A stretch of 36,263 bases of DNA from a virus (IMGVR_UViG_3300045988_159823:1-36263), one strand, 5' to 3'; counted from the stretch's first letter, positions 20,192 through 36,031 are shown. Notes: generated from the letters alone by a model not told the origin. Made by a program: numbers and translations.

Positions 20192-20542
20192 TTACTTCAG
20201 CCGTTCACGGGCCGTCTTCGCCTTATGACACGGCCAGCACAGGCTCTGCAGATTGCTGTCGGCATCAGTGCCGCCATGCGCTTTAGGGATGATGTGGTCA
20301 ACGGTTTTCGCCTCACGCACCACACCGGCACGCAGACATAACTGACATAAACCTTTGTCACGCTCCAGCACACGCGCGCGGATAACATCCCACTTCGAAC
20401 CGTAGCCGCGCTGATGACGGGATTGTCCTGGCTTGTATTGCTTCCAGCCTTCGCTTTTGTGGCTTTCGCAATAGCCTGACGGATCAGTAGTAGTATGGCG
20501 GCAACCGCGAACGCGGCAGGCTTTTGGGGTTCGTGGTGGCAT
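20192..20542 (-). CDS. HNH endonuclease (terminase-associated, cos-phage type)
   Basis: CxxC ... DHIIPKAHGGTDADSNLQSLCWPCH motif; start at internal Met preceded by GGAG. Confidence 0.8.
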   Translation of the reverse strand: MPPRTPKACRVRGCRHTTTDPSGYCESHKSEGWKQYKPGQSRHQRGYGSKWDVIRARVLERDKGLCQLCLRAGVVREAKTVDHIIPKAHGGTDADSNLQSLCWPCHKAKTARERLK

Positions 20543-20607
20543 GCTGGCTCCAATAAAAAGCCCCGCGACGCGAGGCTTAGACAGAAAAAACACCGGATAA
20601 GATCTGG

Positions 20608-20811
20608 TCATTCTTCCTTTTTAATAATGACTTCTCGAGGGCGCAATTGTTGGATAGCACGACAAATACAATATGGAATAACAGCCCATGCTACTCCCAT
20701 TGCTGCACCTGCAGCCTGTTGTGGAGCACTCTGAGCACCGAAAACCCCGAGGATTCCTTCAATAAATCCAATAGCACTACACAAAAGACTGATGGCCCAG
20801 AGAATTTTCAT
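20608..20811 (-). CDS. small hydrophobic protein, unknown function (AT-rich)
   Basis: 67 aa with two hydrophobic segments and a charged C-terminus; AT-rich patch 20600..20930. Confidence 0.4.
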   Translation of the reverse strand: MKILWAISLLCSAIGFIEGILGVFGAQSAPQQAAGAAMGVAWAVIPYCICRAIQQLRPREVIIKKEE

Positions 20812-20928: not shown

Positions 20929-21303
20929 TTATTCCGGTCGCTGGAGTTGCTCATGATGATACAGAGCGAGAATCAGGTCATAAGACCCTTGCCTGTCTTT
21001 GTAACCAGTTTTATCAACCAATTCAGCTTTACTGATTCCGGGTAAATCAAGAATCAGATTCGCAACTTCAATTGCCCTTTGGTACAACTTACCGCCCTTT
21101 TTCTCCCCATGCAGTGGTTTTACATTCTTGAGGTAACCGCTATCCGCCAGGGCGAGAAATGTTGTCCTTGGGCATATCTTCTTTCTTGACGATTCGCTTT
21201 CTGTAACCTCTGCGACAGCTGCATCCCATGCATCCCGAGGAGTCATTGAGCTATCAGCCACCAAATGATAAGCGATTAAAGCAACGTGAGCGTATTGAGA
21301 CAT
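20929..21303 (-). CDS. hypothetical protein downstream of the lysis cassette
   Basis: 124 aa from the internal ATG; the track ORF begins at a GTG that overlaps the Rz stop. Confidence 0.45.
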   Translation of the reverse strand: MSQYAHVALIAYHLVADSSMTPRDAWDAAVAEVTESESSRKKICPRTTFLALADSGYLKNVKPLHGEKKGGKLYQRAIEVANLILDLPGISKAELVDKTGYKDRQGSYDLILALYHHEQLQRPE

Positions 21304-21341
21304 AATGCATCCATATACAAAAATCTCATGATAAGACTTTT

Positions 21342-21785
21342 CTAATATGAACACTGTGATCTCACATATTCTTGCAGGCCATTCAATTGGTTAGTTATGG
21401 TTTCGATGCGCTCTCTGAGAACGAAATAATCCCGTTGAGCGGTGTCAGTAAGTCTGGGGCTGGAAGCATCATCCACGCCGGAGGCGGCGGTGGTTTTATC
21501 CTTGTCCGGGCAGACTGCTTTGACGTGCAGCCACTTACGACCAGCAGAAACATCAGCACAAAGACTTTCGATAGTCGCGTTAGCATCAACAAGCTCCTTT
21601 GTATATCTGGCATCGAGTTCAGCTACATCACGTTGACGCTTCTGCATGTCAGCGATAATGGATGCGGCCTTATCACGCTGCTTTTTGTAGGTGATGGCGT
21701 TATCACGGTAATGATTAACCGCCCATGACAGGCAGACGATGATGCAGATAACCAGAACGGAGATAATCGCGGTGACTCTGCTCAT
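21342..21785 (-). CDS. Rz: i-spanin Rz
   Basis: [34 protein letters not shown]... is nearly collinear with lambda Rz. Confidence 0.85.
21395..21586 (-). CDS. Rz1: o-spanin Rz1 (embedded in the +1 frame of Rz)
   Basis: Lipobox LLVVSGC followed by TSKQ...[25 protein letters not shown], as in lambda Rz1. Confidence 0.8.
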
Positions 21786-22258
21786 ACCTCAATCTCTCTG
21801 ACCGTTCCGCCCGCTTCTTTGAATTTTGCAATCAGGCTGTCAGTCTTATGCTCGAACTGACCATAACCAGCACCAGGCAATGAGGCCCAGATATTGCTGC
21901 AACGGTCGATTGCCTGACGGATGTCACCGCGATCAATCATTAGTAAAGCGCCACGCTCCTTAATCTGCTGCAATGCAACAGCATCCTGGCTTTTAGGAGA
22001 GAAGTCTGTCAGCCCTAACTGCTTGCGGTAAGCATCCCACCAGCGTGAAAGAAGTTGATAACGGCCTGCGGCTGTTGATTTGAGTTTCGGGTTTAGCGTG
22101 ACAAGTTTTCGAGGGTGATCGGAGTAATCAGTGAAGAGTTCGCCACCGACAATAACGTCATAACCGTGGTTACGTGTCGGTTGTCGCCCGTTATCCGTTC
22201 CTTCTGACCAGGCCACCATATCAAGGAAAGCTTTACGCTGAGGATTTAGTACCTGCAT
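21782..22258 (-). CDS. R: endolysin, lambda R-type lytic transglycosylase
   Basis: [64 protein letters not shown]... is highly similar to lambda R. Confidence 0.9.
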
Positions 22259-22261
22259 AAA

Positions 22262-22597
22262 TTACTCCTTCGAGCTACCAAATTTGTTACCGATTACTCG
22301 CATTGCAGCCCCACGAATAGCATCGACACCGATCAGCCCAACGCCGCCACCAATGGCAACAGAAAGAGATTTAGGCCATCCGACATACTCAAGAGCGGAT
22401 GCAAAAGTCAGCGTCAGAGCACCACAGAGCAAAATCTCGAGCGTTTTTCGCTTCCAGCCACCACCACCGCCAAAATAGGCAATGCGCAAGCCAGCCATAA
22501 CGATCGACATAATCACTGCGCCCAGCGGTGTGTCTCCACGCCACCAGCTCTGAAACAACTCCAGCCAGTCCGGCCAGGTATTTGGGTTATGAGGCAT
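22262..22597 (-). CDS. holin (putative)
   Basis: 111 aa with hydrophobic TM segments and a charged C-terminus, immediately upstream of the endolysin. Confidence 0.6.
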   Translation of the reverse strand: MPHNPNTWPDWLELFQSWWRGDTPLGAVIMSIVMAGLRIAYFGGGGGWKRKTLEILLCGALTLTFASALEYVGWPKSLSVAIGGGVGLIGVDAIRGAAMRVIGNKFGSSKE

Positions 22598-22749
22598 TTG
22601 TAGTTATCTCTCACCTCGCTGATACAGCAGGTGCAAATTGAGGAAACATCATGTTCCGCAAATCAGAAGCGGAAACGTCAAAGAAGCCGAGTCAAAGGAT
22701 AACTGCGAGATAAACCAAGCCCAACGAACAACCAGGCCCAGAAACGACA

Positions 22750-22771
22750 AAACCCGCTCATCGGCGGGTTT
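22750..22771 (-). terminator. tR'-like rho-independent terminator upstream of the holin
   Basis: Minus-sense hairpin AAACCCGC/GCGGGTTT followed by TTTTGTCGTTT, about 150 bp upstream of the holin start. Confidence 0.45.
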
Positions 22772-22863
22772 AAGCTGTGTGGCGAAGTAACCACTCTTAA
22801 CACATTACATGATAAAATGCGGACCGCGTTAGTAATATTTTTCTCATATATTGGGTTCACTAC

Positions 22864-23610
22864 ATGCGACATAATTTTTCTAAAGACACTATAAAAAAAT
22901 TAGCAGAGCGGGCAGCATTCATTTGTTCAAACCCTTCATGCCCTAGATTGACCATTGGCCCATCAATTGATGGCAATAAATCAATCAAGACAGGAGTTGC
23001 TGCTCACATATGTGCAGCATCTCCTGATGGCCCACGCTATGACATGTCACAATCAGAAACAGAAAGGAAGTCAATTAACAATGGCATATGGCTGTGTGCT
23101 ACTTGTTCTGTATTAATAGATAAGAATCAGGGGCTAGACTATCCGGCACCTGTATTAAGAAAATGGAAAAAAGATCATGAAAGCCTTATAAGCTCCTGTC
23201 TTGAAGGTTCGATTAATATTACCTTCGATGCTTTGAAATATATTCAACAGCATGATGAAAGAAATCTGGCAAAAAAGATTATAAATGAATTGGATGATAA
23301 AGGGGCTTTGTTCGTAGAATATCATCTTGAAAACCCCTGTTTTGTTGCCGAATCACTCAAAGAGTTAAGAACATGTTTGACCTCTTTGCTTTCTCAAATC
23401 CCAGATGAATCACCTCTATTTATCGTTTGCAAGTCAATTCGAGAAGCATGCCGTTATTATATGAACAACACTTCTAAAGACGCAGGGATTAAAGAGTTAG
23501 AATTTTCGTTGGGAGCTGTCAGAAAAATCGTAGGTATCAACGTTAAAAGAATATCAGAAACCTACGGGGTTAAACCTAGCCCACAATTATCTACCATAAT
23601 GCCAGATTAA
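22864..23610 (+). CDS. AT-rich cargo gene: HNH-nuclease-like N-terminal domain plus uncharacterized C-terminal domain
   Basis: CSNPSC ... AAHICAASPDGPRY ... NGIWLCATCS arrangement resembles an HNH zinc-finger nuclease core; encoded antisense to the late operon between Q and the holin. Confidence 0.6.
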   Translation: MRHNFSKDTIKKLAERAAFICSNPSCPRLTIGPSIDGNKSIKTGVAAHICAASPDGPRYDMSQSETERKSINNGIWLCATCSVLIDKNQGLDYPAPVLRKWKKDHESLISSCLEGSINITFDALKYIQQHDERNLAKKIINELDDKGALFVEYHLENPCFVAESLKELRTCLTSLLSQIPDESPLFIVCKSIREACRYYMNNTSKDAGIKELEFSLGAVRKIVGINVKRISETYGVKPSPQLSTIMPD

Positions 23611-23619
23611 ATCTGTTAC

Positions 23620-23650
23620 GCAGCAACAAAGTTAAACTCTATGTTGCTGC
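23620..23650 (+). terminator. hairpin terminator after the plus-strand cargo gene
   Basis: 9-bp inverted repeat GCAGCAACA / TGTTGCTGC with a 13-nt loop, followed by a T-rich stretch; lies in the 50-bp gap before the Q stop. Confidence 0.4.
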
Positions 23651-23660
23651 CTTAATTTTA

Positions 23661-24023
23661 TTACTCCATTTCTAAACGAATATCCAGCATCGAGAGACAA
23701 CCATCTATAAACCCTTCAGCCAACTGTATCTCTATACGTATCAATTTCTCATCTTTTTTGTATGCTTTTGCTATCTTCCTTTTCGAGATGCCATACAGGT
23801 AATGAGCCACAATCAGAGAGTGCTCATACGGTTTTCTCTTCTTAAGAAGAGCAAGACAACCTTCAATAATTAATGCATCACTATCTGAACAAGCCTGACG
23901 TGTTTTGCTTGTATAGGGAAGAAGCCCTTTAAACCCAGCAGCTATAGGAGAATAGTCTACTCCAGAACTATCACTCGCCGCCCATGCTCCCCAACGATCC
24001 AGAACCATCTGAATATCACGCAT
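23661..24023 (-). CDS. late antiterminator Q (QuuD / phage 82 Q-like)
   Basis: MRDIQMVLDRWGAWAA ... LDIRLEME closely resembles QuuD of the DLP12 prophage; start taken at internal Met 6. Confidence 0.8.
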   Translation of the reverse strand: MRDIQMVLDRWGAWAASDSSGVDYSPIAAGFKGLLPYTSKTRQACSDSDALIIEGCLALLKKRKPYEHSLIVAHYLYGISKRKIAKAYKKDEKLIRIEIQLAEGFIDGCLSMLDIRLEME

Positions 24024-24040
24024 CAACTTTCTCCGCAAAA

Positions 24041-25036
24041 TCAGGCCAGCACGCCAATTGCCAGCGCACGATCGATAAAACGAAATATCAGCTCCAGCTG
24101 GGAGCCATACTTCTCTTCAAATGCCACGGTATCCGCATGCAGCTCGTCGTGATGCTTTCTGCACAAAGGCAACACAAAGAGGTCATGCGCTTTTGTACCC
24201 ATTCCCCCCTGACCGTGGCCTATCAGGTGGTGGGGATCATCAGCAGGCTTACCACAACATGCACACGGCTGTGTCTTAACCCAGCGCGTGTACTTTTCAT
24301 TAACCCAGCGGCGACGTTTTGGGCGTAACATAAAAGACTCCGGCGACTCCGGATCCACTTTCAGCGCCAGCACCTTTTTTGCCTTATCCTGGATGATGCT
24401 GGTGGCAGGAACCGAAGGCACAAGGTCACTTTCCCGGGTGACAGACGGCACAACAGGCTTCGGTAATCTCAGTGCCTTACGGGCTGCACTTTCCGGTAAG
24501 GCACCCGCCAGGTCATTACGAATCAGCCACCAGCACAGTTCCGGCATTGTCACAGCGTGACTATCATCAAAACCGAGATCCCGACGCACAACAGACAACA
24601 CCCAGCGGGCACAGTTATCCGTTGCCATTGATTCCAGCCGTTCCGTGAACTGATCGCGCAGCTGGTTATCGCAGTGCCAGCACAGACGGATTGCGCCCGG
24701 CGCGTGTCGCATTGTGGTCATGTTCTCGCTGTGCCAGTCGGAATGAGGCCACTGGCAGCCTTTTTCACGAAGTAACCAGCTTTCAAGACATTCCACTCCA
24801 CCAGCACGACGAATCACTGCCTCATTGCGGAACACGGCCCGAACGGCAGGATCATCCGCCAGCGGTTGTGATGCCGCCGGAACGGCACCACTGGCGAAAG
24901 ATGAATAACGTTCCGGCTCAGGCTCCAGCAGGACACGCCCCTGCATAAACAAGGGCATCAGCTCTGAACCTGGTCTGAACAATACGATCCCCATACGCGG
25001 GGCAATTTCAGGGGTCAGTAGTGCTCTCACGGTCAC
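24041..25036 (-). CDS. DUF968-type protein (YdfU-like) with a C-terminal Cys/His HNH-like motif
   Basis: C-terminal CACCGKPADDPHHLIGHGQGG...LCRKHHDELH; position between KilA-N and Q. Confidence 0.55.
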   Translation of the reverse strand: MTVRALLTPEIAPRMGIVLFRPGSELMPLFMQGRVLLEPEPERYSSFASGAVPAASQPLADDPAVRAVFRNEAVIRRAGGVECLESWLLREKGCQWPHSDWHSENMTTMRHAPGAIRLCWHCDNQLRDQFTERLESMATDNCARWVLSVVRRDLGFDDSHAVTMPELCWWLIRNDLAGALPESAARKALRLPKPVVPSVTRESDLVPSVPATSIIQDKAKKVLALKVDPESPESFMLRPKRRRWVNEKYTRWVKTQPCACCGKPADDPHHLIGHGQGGMGTKAHDLFVLPLCRKHHDELHADTVAFEEKYGSQLELIFRFIDRALAIGVLA

Positions 25037-31978: not shown

Positions 31979-32224
31979 ATGCTTCAAATGCTGACACTTG
32001 AGGAATGGGCTGCGGAAAAATTTAGGAGTAATCCTCCAAGTGTGTCCACATTACGTCGTTATGCTAAGCAGAATTTATTTTGTCCACCGGCAATGAAACA
32101 AGGTCGACTATGGCGAGTGCGTGAGGATGCAGAGTTAGTTGGGGAGTTAGTTACTCCAGTAATAAAGAAAAGTGATTCTATTATTCTACAAAGGATTTTA
32201 GGTAATGGCAGCCAGACCACGTAA
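31979..32224 (+). CDS. xis: excisionase (lambda Xis-like)
   Basis: LTLEEWAAEKF ... STLRRYAKQNLFCPPAMKQGRLWRVRED parallels lambda Xis; overlaps the int start; exact start ambiguous (31964, 31979 or 31988). Confidence 0.7.
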   Translation: MLQMLTLEEWAAEKFRSNPPSVSTLRRYAKQNLFCPPAMKQGRLWRVREDAELVGELVTPVIKKSDSIILQRILGNGSQTT

Positions 32225-33335
32225 AAATAATGTTTCAGTCCCGAACTTGTATCCGCTTTATAGCAGAAAAGTAAATAAAGTCTATTGGCGATATAAACAT
32301 CCAGTGACCGGGAAGTTTCATTCTTTAGGCACAAACGAAGCTGAAGCCATTGCTATTGCCACTGAGGCAAATTCACGCCTGGCTGAGCAAAGAACCCGGC
32401 AGATTCTGGCTATCAGTGACAGGATCGCAACCAGCAAAGGAAAAGCAATCACAACGTCAACCTGGTTAGATCGCTATCAAGCAATCCAGGATGACAGACT
32501 GGAAAGTGGCGATATAAAGCTCAACACCTATAAACAGAAAGCCAAACCAGTATCCTTGCTCAGGGAACGAGCAGGAATGAAATTAATTTCATCAGTTGAT
32601 GCAAGGGATATAGCACAATTGCTTGACGAGTATATCACTGCCGGGCAACCGAGGATGGCGCAAGTAGTCCGCTCCGTTCTAATTGATGTATTCAAGGAGG
32701 CACAACACTATGGGGAAGTCCCTCCGGGCTATAATCCTGCACTGGCAACCAAACAACCCAGAAGAAAAATTACCCGACAACGGTTAAATCTTGAAGAGTG
32801 GCAAAAAATCTTTGATATTGCAGATGCCAGTCATCGTTATATGGGGAATGCCATGCTGTTAGCACTGGTTACCGGCCAACGGTTAGGTGATATCTCACGT
32901 ATGAAATTTAGCGATATTTGGGATGATCATCTTCACGTCATCCAGGAAAAAACCGGGAGCAAAATCGCCATCCCGCTTTCTCTGCGCCTCAATGCGATTA
33001 ACTGGAGTTTGCGCGATGTAGTAGCCCGTTGCCGTGACTATGCTGTCAGCCCATACCTTGTACATTTTTTTCGTACTACTTCACAGGCTGAACGCGGCGC
33101 ACAGGTTAAAGCCAATACCTTGACTATGAATTTCAGTAAAGCAAGAGATTTAGCAGGAATTGATTGGGGGAAAGGTTCACCTGCCACATTCCATGAACAA
33201 CGGTCTTTATCTGAACGTCTGTACAAAGAACAGGGGATCGATACTAGAAAGCTACTGGGCCATAAAACCCAGCAGCAAACAGATCGCTACCATGATGACC
33301 GAGGGAAAGATTGGAGTAAAATAGCTATAATTTGA
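32205..33335 (+). CDS. int: tyrosine integrase, lambda Int family
   Basis: Collinear with lambda Int including ...TFHEQRSLSERLYKEQ...LLGHKTQQQTDRYHDDRGKDWSKI (catalytic R-H-R-Y region). Confidence 0.9.
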   Translation: MAARPRKNNVSVPNLYPLYSRKVNKVYWRYKHPVTGKFHSLGTNEAEAIAIATEANSRLAEQRTRQILAISDRIATSKGKAITTSTWLDRYQAIQDDRLESGDIKLNTYKQKAKPVSLLRERAGMKLISSVDARDIAQLLDEYITAGQPRMAQVVRSVLIDVFKEAQHYGEVPPGYNPALATKQPRRKITRQRLNLEEWQKIFDIADASHRYMGNAMLLALVTGQRLGDISRMKFSDIWDDHLHVIQEKTGSKIAIPLSLRLNAINWSLRDVVARCRDYAVSPYLVHFFRTTSQAERGAQVKANTLTMNFSKARDLAGIDWGKGSPATFHEQRSLSERLYKEQGIDTRKLLGHKTQQQTDRYHDDRGKDWSKIAII

Positions 33336-34185
33336 CTCTTGTAGGATCCATATCATCAGGAATAGAAATGCTATCACAAAAAAAGATTACTTCTGGCCCT
33401 TGGTACCTAGATTGAGCACTATAGCTGATACCGTACTCAATTTTTCTAAGACCAGTGTACATGTTGTTTATTTCAACAGTATTATCGTAAGATACAATCC
33501 ATGGATGCTTTGAATTAGATTTTATAATATTAGCAATTTCGACATGATCATCATGACTATAATGGTTTTGATACAAGCCCTTTCCTTTAACATAATATGG
33601 AGGGTCAAGATAAAGCAATGTTTTTAATGGGAATCCAGTTACAGTATTTTGCAAGAATGATTTAGCATCTTGGTTATAGATACAAATATCAGATTTACGG
33701 TCTGCTATTACCTTAATACGGTTTACTAAATCAACCTTATTAAATCGAGCATCTATTTTCCATTTTCCATTTTGTTCCTTACCACCAATTACACCACCTA
33801 ACAAAATTCCTGACCGATTTGTTCGATTAAGGAAAAACGTAGCGAATCCAACTTCCAATGAGGAATAATCACATTGATTACTAATGATATTTTTATTCTT
33901 ATACCATTCATCCATATTCACAGGGGTTTTTTCAATTAATTGGCAAAACTGATCAGTTTCTTCTAGAATTGACCGCCAAAAACAAAAAATGGCGTTATTA
34001 AGATCGTTTAAATGTATACGTGATGCTTTCCCAGACAAAAGTAAATTAATGGCTACTCCAGCACCACCAGCATACGGCTCAACATATTCGCAACCATCTA
34101 AACCATTGATCATAATGATCTTTGATAGATAGTTAGTTAATTTACCTTTACCACCAGGATACCGTAATGGGGTGCTGAATCTCAT
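33325..34185 (-). CDS. N6-adenine DNA methyltransferase, Dam (D12) family
   Basis: RYPGGK, VEPYAGGAGVAINLL (SAM-binding) and LYLDPPYY (catalytic DPPY) motifs in Dam-like order; AT-rich; 3' end overlaps the int 3' end by 11 bp. Confidence 0.8.
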   Translation of the reverse strand: MRFSTPLRYPGGKGKLTNYLSKIIMINGLDGCEYVEPYAGGAGVAINLLLSGKASRIHLNDLNNAIFCFWRSILEETDQFCQLIEKTPVNMDEWYKNKNIISNQCDYSSLEVGFATFFLNRTNRSGILLGGVIGGKEQNGKWKIDARFNKVDLVNRIKVIADRKSDICIYNQDAKSFLQNTVTGFPLKTLLYLDPPYYVKGKGLYQNHYSHDDHVEIANIIKSNSKHPWIVSYDNTVEINNMYTGLRKIEYGISYSAQSRYQGPEVIFFCDSISIPDDMDPTRVKL

Positions 34186-34254: not shown

Positions 34255-35964
34255 TCACTTAGTCACAACGCTCTTAACTCTTTCAGGATTAAGGCCAAAT
34301 TCTTCCCCTATAACAAAGCGCAATGCTTCGATAAGAGTATCGTTAAACTTGTCTACCAATATTTTATTATCCTCAGCCCACTTTCTATATGGATTGTATT
34401 TTACACCGCCACATTTTATCAGTTCTTGTAATGTTTTCTCCTGTATAAATTTTTTGAATAACTCTCTTATCCTTGAACCATCAAGTTTATCTTTATTAAC
34501 TTCTTTTATTTTTTCTTTTAATTTAATTTTTTGCTCACTAATATTAAGAGCAGTAATTATGGGGTTGGACTTTTCGAAAAAATAGTCTTTAGTATAATGT
34601 AGTGGGTTGTTCTTCCAGAAATCATCACTGGCATCTAGGTTAAATAGATATTCGAAAATTATTTGATCCGGTGGTAATATTCCCGGTAATTTAACCACAT
34701 TCGCATGCTTGACATTCTCCACGTCAGCATCTAAAACAATTATTGCAGACTTATAAAAACCAGGAACTTTTTTGTTTAAAAGTTGAATATAGTTTTTGCA
34801 TCCAAGAGTTATGTCCTTATTTAAATTAAGTAATCTTCTTATATCTCTGCGTGTTACAACAGAACAAAATAAATCATAATTTTCCTTATCCTCAAAGAAA
34901 ACATTAGTCTTCCGAATAGACTCCTGCTTATTCAACTGTAATGTTTCATTGCAAAGATCTAGCCTAATATCTCCCCATGAATAATCATTCTTTACTTCTA
35001 ACTTACCGTAAGTATTTGTTAGATATATCACCTTATAGTTTTTGCTGTCTCTTTTCGTATATTCATATACTGAATTTATAATCTCTGGTGAATGAGTGGT
35101 AAATACCACCTGTAAATCTAACTTCTTAGTGATAGATGATAATTTCTCAATTAAACGTCTCTGTGCTGCAGGAAACAATCCAGCATCAATTTCATCTATC
35201 AATAGAATCCCACCATGATAATCTGGATATTCAGCCTGAAGTTTTTTAAATGAAAAAATAGCTTGTAGTATTTGTCCTAAATTATCCTCGCCAACAGAAA
35301 CAGATTGATGATCGTATTTTTCACCACTAACAACCATCGAGTCTATAGTACCATTTGTTTTTGTTAGATTATTGGCATTTCGTACACCTAAAATATATGA
35401 ACTTAATTGAACAAAGTCTTGTCTATTTAAATTCATAAATTCATCAATATCAGACACAGTGTATTTTTGACGATCTGGCACGGGTGTAAGGCGCTTCATA
35501 CTCAAGTAAATTAGCGGATGTGTAACCTTTCTGCTATCACTAGCCCCATTAGTAGTAGTATTATTACGAACCGTTGCTCGAGGGTATGAATGTTCACTCC
35601 TTAAATATAGACCGAGTTTTAATTGTTCCAACTCCTTCTGTTCAGCTCCATCATATATAATGACATCAACATCCATAGAACTTGGCGTATCAAACTTTTC
35701 TGAGAGCCGGAAATGCTCTCTAAACTGAGATGAGAAAGGTTTTCCAGCAAGAGTCTTATATTTTCTCAGATCTACCTTTGGCTCTTGAGTATAATCGGTC
35801 TCAAAATTAAACATTTGGGCAGCAATGCCCAACACCGTCGATTTTGACGTACCATTTTTGCCACAAATTGCCGTTATACGTTCACCAAAATGGATCGTAC
35901 AGTCATTCAAGCCTCGAAAGCTCTTTATTTTTATTTCTTTTAGCTTGGTTATTTTTTGGGACAT
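34255..35964 (-). CDS. OLD-family-like ABC ATPase with a probable C-terminal TOPRIM nuclease domain
   Basis: Walker A GKNGTSKST, Walker B ILLIDEIDAG, H-loop TTHSPE; C-terminal FFEDKENYD plus IIVLDADVE look like a TOPRIM Glu and DxD; start at internal Met with AGGA spacing. Confidence 0.7.
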   Translation of the reverse strand: MSQKITKLKEIKIKSFRGLNDCTIHFGERITAICGKNGTSKSTVLGIAAQMFNFETDYTQEPKVDLRKYKTLAGKPFSSQFREHFRLSEKFDTPSSMDVDVIIYDGAEQKELEQLKLGLYLRSEHSYPRATVRNNTTTNGASDSRKVTHPLIYLSMKRLTPVPDRQKYTVSDIDEFMNLNRQDFVQLSSYILGVRNANNLTKTNGTIDSMVVSGEKYDHQSVSVGEDNLGQILQAIFSFKKLQAEYPDYHGGILLIDEIDAGLFPAAQRRLIEKLSSITKKLDLQVVFTTHSPEIINSVYEYTKRDSKNYKVIYLTNTYGKLEVKNDYSWGDIRLDLCNETLQLNKQESIRKTNVFFEDKENYDLFCSVVTRRDIRRLLNLNKDITLGCKNYIQLLNKKVPGFYKSAIIVLDADVENVKHANVVKLPGILPPDQIIFEYLFNLDASDDFWKNNPLHYTKDYFFEKSNPIITALNISEQKIKLKEKIKEVNKDKLDGSRIRELFKKFIQEKTLQELIKCGGVKYNPYRKWAEDNKILVDKFNDTLIEALRFVIGEEFGLNPERVKSVVTK

Positions 35965-36031
35965 ATTTTCCTTCGTCCTCATTTTGATTAAAAAAACAGA
36001 TAAACGGAAAAATGCTACCATGTAGAGAAAG

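Follow-up and report, generated by a model that had tools for sequence, protein, structure and literature searches.

A prophage-borne HNH-DUF6650 protein, predicted to be a single-gene anti-phage nuclease, in a cargo site next to antiterminator Q

The DUF6650 domain (PF20355) is named by DefensePredictor as newly implicated in defense (PMC13092281). It occurs in type VI Thoeris, which is composed of a TIR protein (ThsB) and the DUF6650 effector ThsG and uses 2'cADPR, an isomer of cyclic ADP-ribose (cADPR), as its signal. ThsG was modelled as a hexameric tube with positively charged pockets between the protomers, and some ThsG proteins have N-terminal transmembrane (TM) helices; how TM-less ThsG kills is stated by the authors of this December 2025 preprint to be unclear (bioRxiv 10.64898/2025.12.03.692087). 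In addition, the single-gene SMEK-DUF6650 protein DS-27 (WP_087896215.1) was validated as an Escherichia coli defense by DefensePredictor (Science 2026, PMC13092281), which shows that defense by a DUF6650 protein is possible in the absence of a TIR partner. The gene described here lies in a viral DNA stretch of 36,263 nucleotides (IMGVR_UViG_3300045988_159823:1-36263, analyzed whole and called the window below) and encodes a DUF6650 domain joined to a predicted HNH nuclease domain, a combination referred to as HNH-DUF6650.

HNH domains of the predicted kind are known from effectors that are switched on by a sensor. Cap5, the nuclease of CBASS, the antiphage signaling system based on cyclic oligonucleotides, is activated through ligand-induced tetramerization and uses His56 as its general base (PMC12141522). 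The HNH of structure 9OM4 belongs to the HNH-APAZ effector of the SPARHA Argonaute system, which forms filaments (PMC12738770). PDC-M68A, the closest model in the PADLOC collection, is part of the multi-gene candidate PDC-M68, and a literature search on PDC-M68A found nothing.

The HNH-DUF6650 gene is probably a one-polypeptide anti-phage nuclease carried by a prophage, a prediction based on its PADLOC matches to PDC-M68A and Cap5, its entry in DefensePredictor, the DUF6650 domain, and the lack of a conserved partner gene. A preliminary description of the locus, made from the sequence alone, had put it forward as a candidate single-gene exclusion or abortive-infection nuclease, and on these grounds that proposal is retained as the best reading. 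The product is identical to WP_001406331.1, which is labelled "hypothetical protein" by the Prokaryotic Genome Annotation Pipeline and "DUF6650 family protein" in newer records. Table S10 of DefensePredictor lists this accession as a "predicted novel defense gene" with a mean log-odds of 8.6 (PMC13092281).

The N-terminal half is assigned, by profile matches and a predicted structure, to the HNH DNase domains of the Cap5/SPARHA effector subfamily. Its top PADLOC match is PDC-M68A (7.5e-27), which covers only positions 1-130 of the 253-position model and leaves the C-terminal half unmatched, and the CBASS "Effector endonuclease" and SAVED_HNH (Cap5) models match residues 1-130 at 5e-21 to 1e-13. 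Among sequences of the Protein Data Bank (PDB), Cap5 was found as 8ysq (1e-8), 7rwk (9e-7), 7rwm, and 8fm1, and the SPARHA HNH-APAZ protein as 9om4 (phmmer, 3.4e-8, residues 13-113). The PADLOC and PDB alignments end at approximately residue 115, and no SAVED domain is present in the C-terminus. The Pfam HNH_2 match was marginal (E 0.086), an NCBIfam scan of the protein gave nothing meaningful, and no DNA-binding module of the NUMOD, AP2, or IENR1 type was found by the Pfam and NCBIfam scans of the protein. A search of the BFVD structures returned no viral structure at E 1e-3, with homing and packaging HNHs appearing only at E 0.5-1.

The catalytic core is conserved throughout the family. In all 101 homologs aligned, the four cysteines of the CCCC zinc site (C21, C26, C78, and C81) are invariant, as are H48, R58, N73, D86, and N88; H48 is the counterpart of the Cap5 general base His56, D86 is the counterpart of the Cap5 Mg ligand Asp95, and D86 and N88 are likely to be the metal ligands. 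An AlphaFold2 model built from these 101 homologs (predicted local distance difference test 89.9, predicted template modeling score 0.87) places strands at residues 44-48 and 74-78 followed by a helix at 79-90, that is, the beta-beta-alpha-metal fold. The HNH domain of this model resembles that of Cap5, and EcoKMcrA and ScoMcrA at lower scores. The preliminary description had pointed to an HNH-like zinc finger on the strength of the stretches CSNPSC, AAHICAASPDGPRY, and NGIWLCATC; all three are found in the protein, and the assignment to HNH is borne out by PADLOC, by the Cap5 and McrA structural matches, by the invariant residues, and by the predicted fold.

The remaining approximately 130 residues, in which the preliminary description had seen no recognizable motif, do have one: their homology to the DUF6650 family is solid at the level of profile comparison. 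A precomputed match to PF20355.5 is recorded for every homolog in a set of 335 clusters; C-terminal-only fragments of 98-100 amino acids carry it too, so the match maps to the C-terminal region. The local Pfam model PF20355.3 gave no DUF6650 match on the query or its C-terminal half, and among homologs of the query it matched only one (P0007, E 7e-4). This model is too narrow for the present branch, and the link was therefore made through an exhaustive profile search and hhalign. A hidden Markov model of the C-terminal part alone, run against 1.84 billion representatives with a cut-off of E<=1e-3, recovered 525 proteins, many of them stand-alone at 150-180 amino acids, and PF20355.3 was found in 70 of 73 sampled hits (best 6e-20). 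Compared with bona fide PF20355 proteins, the family profile aligned over 122 columns with an hhalign probability of 99.9% (E 2.8e-33). When the C-terminal profile was used in a word-indexed search, the only proteins recovered were truncated members of the HNH-DUF6650 family itself. The motifs LED(K/R), E..P..V..S....R..LT, ACR, LG..R..G, and a C-terminal L.I.P are held in common with canonical DUF6650 and map to E156, S164, R169, C196-R197, R220, G224, and P247. The AlphaFold2 model has helices across residues 121-243, and structure comparison of this domain with the PDB gave generic helix bundles only.

Set against the described systems, the protein is a pairing of parts that are each known. 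With ThsG, which is the killing effector of type VI Thoeris, it shares PF20355 in the C-terminal half and the motifs LED, E-P, S...R, ACR, LG..R..G, and L.I.P; ThsG, however, consists of DUF6650 by itself or preceded by TM helices, whereas here DUF6650 is fused to a predicted nuclease and no ThsB/TIR gene adjoins it. DS-27 likewise works as a single gene in E. coli and carries DUF6650 at its C-terminus (residues 169-292), but its N-terminus is SMEK, not HNH, and single-sequence hhalign found no significant pairwise similarity. Cap5 has the same type of N-terminal HNH domain and differs in its SAVED C-terminus, where the present protein has the all-helical DUF6650, and in its CCCH zinc site; furthermore, no cyclase (cGAS/DncV-like nucleotidyltransferase) was found in the prophage annotation or among 99 open reading frames (ORFs) flanking the homologs. 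The N-terminal HNH of the SPARHA effector falls in the same subfamily and is activated by higher-order assembly, but the partner of this effector is a short Argonaute with guide/target sensing, and DUF6650 is missing from it.

The gene is organized as a stand-alone unit and is under strong purifying selection. In a scan of one genome per species, the full-length HNH-DUF6650 architecture was found in 28 species, which span Enterobacterales, Burkholderiales, Xanthomonadales, Bacteroidota, Cyanobacteria, Acidobacteriota, and one Clostridium relative. Clustering of the ORFs within 3 kb in these 28 species revealed no common neighbor beyond two loci carrying the same element, and in a Pfam scan of the 99 flanking ORFs (27 species) each family was limited to two ORFs at most. 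Most of the family is located in the chromosome outside phage contexts, next to unrelated genes, and some copies are in surroundings resembling defense islands, for instance beside HEPN_AbiV and DUF4062. The gene is present in 24 of 5426 complete E. coli genomes and in none of 50,697 sequenced phage records. Relative to the homolog in a Klebsiella aerogenes prophage, the ratio of nonsynonymous to synonymous substitution rates (dN/dS) is 0.05 overall, 0.046 in the HNH part, and 0.061 in DUF6650. A pseudogene or chance ORF was considered and ruled out by this ratio, the intact reading frame, and the conserved length in more than 100 homologs.

Both halves also occur apart. The same HNH domain (approximately 50% identity over residues 2-113) is found on other C-termini in approximately 50 further species (loci L045-L095), and likewise in the "lysogenic conversion" proteins of P2-EC46 and a Yersinia phage. 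DUF6650, in turn, occurs alone or on other N-termini, with no TIR neighbors in the cases examined. The two halves therefore behave as shuffled modules. One protein of 351 amino acids, encoded beside an integrase at smpB (L103, 2501-3556; L104, 1051-2106), has an unassigned N-terminus of 237 residues in front of a C-terminal DUF6650.

Table 1. Features of the HNH-DUF6650 gene and its surroundings in the window
Feature	Coordinates	Strand	Basis
Lambda-family holin S, first gene of the lysis cassette	22262..22597	-	PF05106, E 2.6e-27; phrog_126
Second terminator	22715-22741	-	Terminator scan
Conserved non-coding block, probable Q-dependent late promoter, short leader, and tR'	22749..22845	-	Alignments of relatives
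Intrinsic terminator hairpin AAACCCGCC..GGCGGGTTT with T-run, inside the block	22750..22771	-	Terminator scan
HNH-DUF6650 coding sequence, 248 amino acids	22864..23610	+	ORF list; ATG start; identical to WP_001406331.1
Predicted Cap5-type HNH nuclease domain, residues 1-115	22864..23208	+	CCCC zinc site, H48, N73, D86/N88
DUF6650 domain, residues 121-248	23224..23607	+	All-helical bundle; E156, S164, R169, C196-R197, R220-K221, G224, P247 conserved
Stem-loop GCAGCAACA...TGTTGCTGC with T-rich tract, probable intrinsic terminator of the cargo gene	23620..23650	+	RNAfold, free energy -15.2 kcal/mol
Antiterminator Q	23661..24038	-	PF06530, E 6.5e-52; phrog_79

The position of the gene is that of phage cargo (Table 1). 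The ORF list and Pfam confirm the arrangement given in the preliminary description, a 248-residue ORF encoded opposite to Q and the holin and lying between them, and its AT-rich composition and downstream hairpin are found as well: the guanine plus cytosine (GC) content of the coding sequence is 37.6% (30% at third codon positions) vs 49.9% in the window, and the hairpin, whose T-rich tail exists on the plus strand only, sits between the convergent stop codons of the gene and of Q. Its cargo status follows from the AT-rich composition, the opposite strand, and the terminator of its own. The gene also lies between conserved phage modules and is missing in cargo-less relatives, and the best explanation is that it is a lysogenic-conversion (moron) gene of the prophage. 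Downstream of the holin come a GH24 lysozyme and then Rz. The surrounding 1.1-kb region is a 100% match to a P27/SfII/SfIV/e14-type prophage beside icd in E. coli L65, where the product is WP_001406331.1, and an Rfam scan of 22200-24100 gave no match. Compared with E. coli GCUET01 over the interval 22600-23700, all 17 differences fall within 22655-22761 and the cargo coding sequence is identical; the cluster, located in the leader/terminator region upstream of the holin, is either the edge of a recombination event or regulatory sequence that evolves fast. Two of the 17 differences are located in the loop of the first terminator (22750..22771).

Between the cargo start codon, which it abuts, and the holin lies a conserved non-coding block that is probably a pR'-tR' module, i.e., a Q-dependent late promoter, a leader, and tR', as judged by alignment. 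On the minus strand it is made up of CGCGGTCCGCA, then TGTTAAGAGTGGTTAC, and then the terminator; over approximately 22715-22845 the order is CGCGGTCCGCA-N15-TGTTAAGAGTGGTTACTTCGCCACACAGCTT, the AAACCCGCC/GGCGGGTTT terminator, and the second terminator. The block is conserved in SfIV, SfII, cdtI, phiP27, the Stx2 phages, and all cargo-bearing prophages, and the first hairpin is retained with sequence changes in other prophages. In the cargo-less 1720a-02 and PPyecE_EH1910, the block begins approximately 10 nucleotides past the Q stop codon, and in Stx2a_1447 and phiP27 all late-strand genes, stx and the tRNAs among them, lie downstream of it. On the simplest reading of these positions, the cargo gene and its terminator would be an insertion that separates Q from the probable pR'-tR' module.

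Two statements of the preliminary description have to be revised in this light. It had placed the gene in the classic late-operon cargo position, together with stx; a location between Q and the holin holds, but the gene occupies a sub-slot between Q and the block, whereas stx lies downstream of the block. It had also reasoned that late transcripts must run antisense through the gene. Given the conserved leader/terminator block that separates the cargo gene from the holin, late transcripts most likely head away from the gene, and if the block is the late promoter, antisense transcription across the gene could come only as read-through from Q. The late promoter may alternatively be placed at the Q end of the cargo gene. 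The -10-like hexamers TATATT (22847-22852, plus strand) and TATCAT/TAATGT (22814-22802, minus strand) were picked by hand, have no good -35, and are not claimed as promoters.

The same slot, Q to block, is a recurrent cargo site in lambdoid phages of the P27/SfIV/cdtI/Stx2 type. Homologs of the cargo gene stand in it beside a PF06530 Q in K. aerogenes (85% identity), E. coli (60%), and Buttiauxella (56%); the four prophage versions share the slot and differ in their holins, endolysins, terminases, and replication genes. The Q of the window is 83% identical to the Q adjoining the 60%-identical homolog. Elsewhere the slot holds two opposite-strand ORFs in cdtI (orf53/54, of which orf54 is DUF6731; L008, 1595-2983), two in SfIV (SfIV_48/49; L006, 2405-3827), and two in Stx2a_1447 (Stx2a_1447_23/24; L097, 2630-4193), and in phiP27 it holds L22, a PD-Lambda-1-like protein (PADLOC 2e-89) on the same strand as Q (L096, 2592-3821). 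PADLOC and Pfam, run on the six ORFs of cdtI, SfIV, and Stx2a_1447, identified only the DUF6731 of cdtI orf54. These cargos share the insertion site and often the opposite strand with HNH-DUF6650, but the proteins are unrelated, which makes the slot a general hotspot.

Several results weigh against the single-gene defense reading or the steps that lead to it. The annotation of the prophage contains no TIR, no cyclase, and nothing else that could be a partner, so that a producer of a signal is missing there. WP_001406331.1 was outside the sets that DefensePredictor screened and assayed by plaque formation, and its entry is a prediction only (PMC13092281). The connection to the validated ThsG is at the level of the Pfam family only: the family profile of the ThsG of E. 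coli ACN001 aligns with canonical DUF6650 at E 4.7e-4 and a probability of 33%, with the present C-terminal family at a marginal E of 0.097 in the same register, and hhalign of the family profiles against the single sequences of SMEK-DUF6650 and ACN001 ThsG was not significant. In the nuclease half, the position of the second Mg ligand of PsCap5, His91, is Ser/Ala here; the metal site therefore differs in detail from that of PsCap5. Finally, a promoter scan found no canonical sigma-70 site on either strand, for the cargo gene or for pR', and the direction of the late transcript accordingly remains inferred.

In the mechanism proposed, for which defense phenotype, trigger, oligomerization, and lysogen expression are what we infer, the nuclease would be made in the lysogen and held inactive. 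DUF6650 would be the regulatory module that senses a trigger at superinfection. By analogy with ThsG and 2'cADPR, the most likely trigger would be a small phosphorylated nucleotide bound at a conserved Arg-rich surface (R169, R197, and R220/K221); alternatively, a phage component could be sensed. Sensing would drive or rearrange an oligomer in such a way that HNH domains form a cleavage-competent pair on DNA, like those of Cap5 tetramers and SPARHA filaments, and the HNH domain, as the killing module, would degrade DNA non-specifically, leading to abortive infection or exclusion of the incoming phage. A more specific version is tentatively suggested and is rather doubtful as it stands: HNH-DUF6650 would act on its own as a DNase under the control of a nucleotide second messenger and would be carried by prophages without any signal synthase, with DUF6650 as a portable sensor/oligomerization module for varied killing domains (HNH, SMEK, TM helices, and unassigned N-termini), and the signal would be either a TIR-type cADPR isomer supplied in trans or a nucleotide generated by the infecting phage. 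Carrying the 2'cADPR specificity over from ThsG to HNH-DUF6650 would be an extrapolation by analogy only.

Each of the other explanations considered is less consistent with the data than a single-protein anti-phage nuclease. The protein might be an orphan Thoeris-type effector, a DNase gated by a cADPR isomer that needs the TIR (ThsB) signal in trans from a host locus or another mobile element. The DUF6650 family does include the 2'cADPR-responsive ThsG, conserved Arg residues are common to canonical DUF6650, and type VI Thoeris exists in E. coli, where the thsB of ACN001 is present in 42 of 5426 complete genomes. That Thoeris locus lies in a P2-like prophage hotspot, with a 243-residue ThsG directly adjoining the ThsB_TIR gene, and a plasmid copy of thsB is frameshifted and has no ThsG. 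Among the listed carriers, however, thsB and HNH-DUF6650 occur together in one genome only (strain LT2-3), close to the approximately 0.2 expected by chance for 24 and 42 of 5426, and at least 19 of 20 listed carriers of HNH-DUF6650 lack this thsB. The absence of a recurring gene family around the homologs and of an annotated TIR in the prophage argues in the same direction, as do the other DUF6650 proteins that occur alone and the single-gene defense by SMEK-DUF6650. A dN/dS of 0.05 is not expected of an effector useless in most of its hosts. The orphan effector is thus considered unlikely. Two side observations concern the ACN001 locus: it is flanked by the replication endonuclease/DinI genes on one side and the portal gene on the other (L099, 2270-3618), and its ThsG, a very distant DUF6650, has diverged so far that the local Pfam DUF6650 model misses it.

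A restriction nuclease similar to type IV, dependent on DNA modification or structure, in which the helical C-terminus would read foreign DNA as the reader domain of McrA does, is judged very improbable. McrA is a cargo of the e14 prophage family, and the present element is likewise at the icd site; the HNH domain has its lower-scoring matches to EcoKMcrA and ScoMcrA, and the nearest labelled relative given by DefensePredictor is a restriction-modification type II HNH restriction endonuclease, at 35% coverage (PMC13092281). Still less probable is a selfish homing endonuclease that would cleave the empty Q/pR' junction of related phages and insert a copy of its own gene there. Phages commonly carry free-standing HNH genes, and the 56-85%-identical copies in one slot of different prophages would suit such an element; on the other hand, the HNH groups with Cap5, SPARHA, and PDC-M68A while homing HNHs in BFVD are reached only at E 0.5-1, the second domain is DUF6650 in place of any DNA-binding module, most of the family is chromosomal, the slot accepts unrelated cargo, and the gene is missing from all the sequenced phage records. 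The lowest probability, a very small one, is given to a function that benefits the phage itself, either a sponge for cADPR-type signals or a nuclease of its own lytic cycle. The gene is phage-borne, DUF6650 proteins bind a Thoeris signal, and phage sponges for such signals exist, namely Tad1 and Tad2 (bioRxiv 10.64898/2025.12.03.692087). Yet a sponge has no need of invariant catalytic HNH residues, the family is mostly chromosomal, the gene is AT-rich, on the opposite strand, and part of neither the early nor the probable late transcription unit, and the phage encodes its packaging-type HNH in a separate gene by the terminase.

That separate gene, 20192-20611 on the minus strand, encodes the usual HNH associated with packaging, an endonuclease of 139 amino acids beside the P27-family small terminase. 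A DUF968 protein (24041-25036, minus strand) directly upstream of Q has a C-terminus matching HNHc_6 (E 4e-6). A DUF6979 protein (Pfam 1.7e-28; 20929-21354, minus strand), flanked by the Rz/lysis genes and by the HNH/terminase genes and without a PADLOC match, may be another small cargo gene. At the other end of the prophage, the integrase (32205-33335, plus strand), intact in the window and split by IS1 in L65, is beside a Dam-like methyltransferase of 286 amino acids (33325-34185, minus strand), whose match to PADLOC PD-Lambda-5_B (E 1.9e-121) is full-length. The gene adjoining it encodes an AAA_15/AAA_21 ATPase of approximately 570 amino acids (PtuA/AriA/HEC-04-like; 34255-36021, minus strand), and the two look like a second, PD-Lambda-5-like defense cargo at the int end.

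Sensor-gated HNH nucleases (Cap5 and SPARHA) and DUF6650 effectors (ThsG and SMEK-DUF6650) are each already known, and WP_001406331.1 is itself no new protein, since it already had a domain-based name and a flag from a machine-learning screen. The word "HNH" is missing from the main text of the type VI Thoeris paper (bioRxiv 10.64898/2025.12.03.692087). The HNH-DUF6650 fusion, its independence from TIR genes, and the Q-proximal slot are undescribed in the literature that could be searched. The main value of the gene would be as a tractable model for DUF6650 action. The fusion would give DUF6650 a readable output, DNA cleavage, that could be used to find its ligand or trigger. If the protein is indeed a nucleotide-gated DNase, this soluble fusion would be the simplest biochemical handle on the DUF6650 ligand and on killing by TM-less ThsG. 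The slot between Q and the conserved block, for its part, is a practical place to seek new defense genes, those of Stx phages included.

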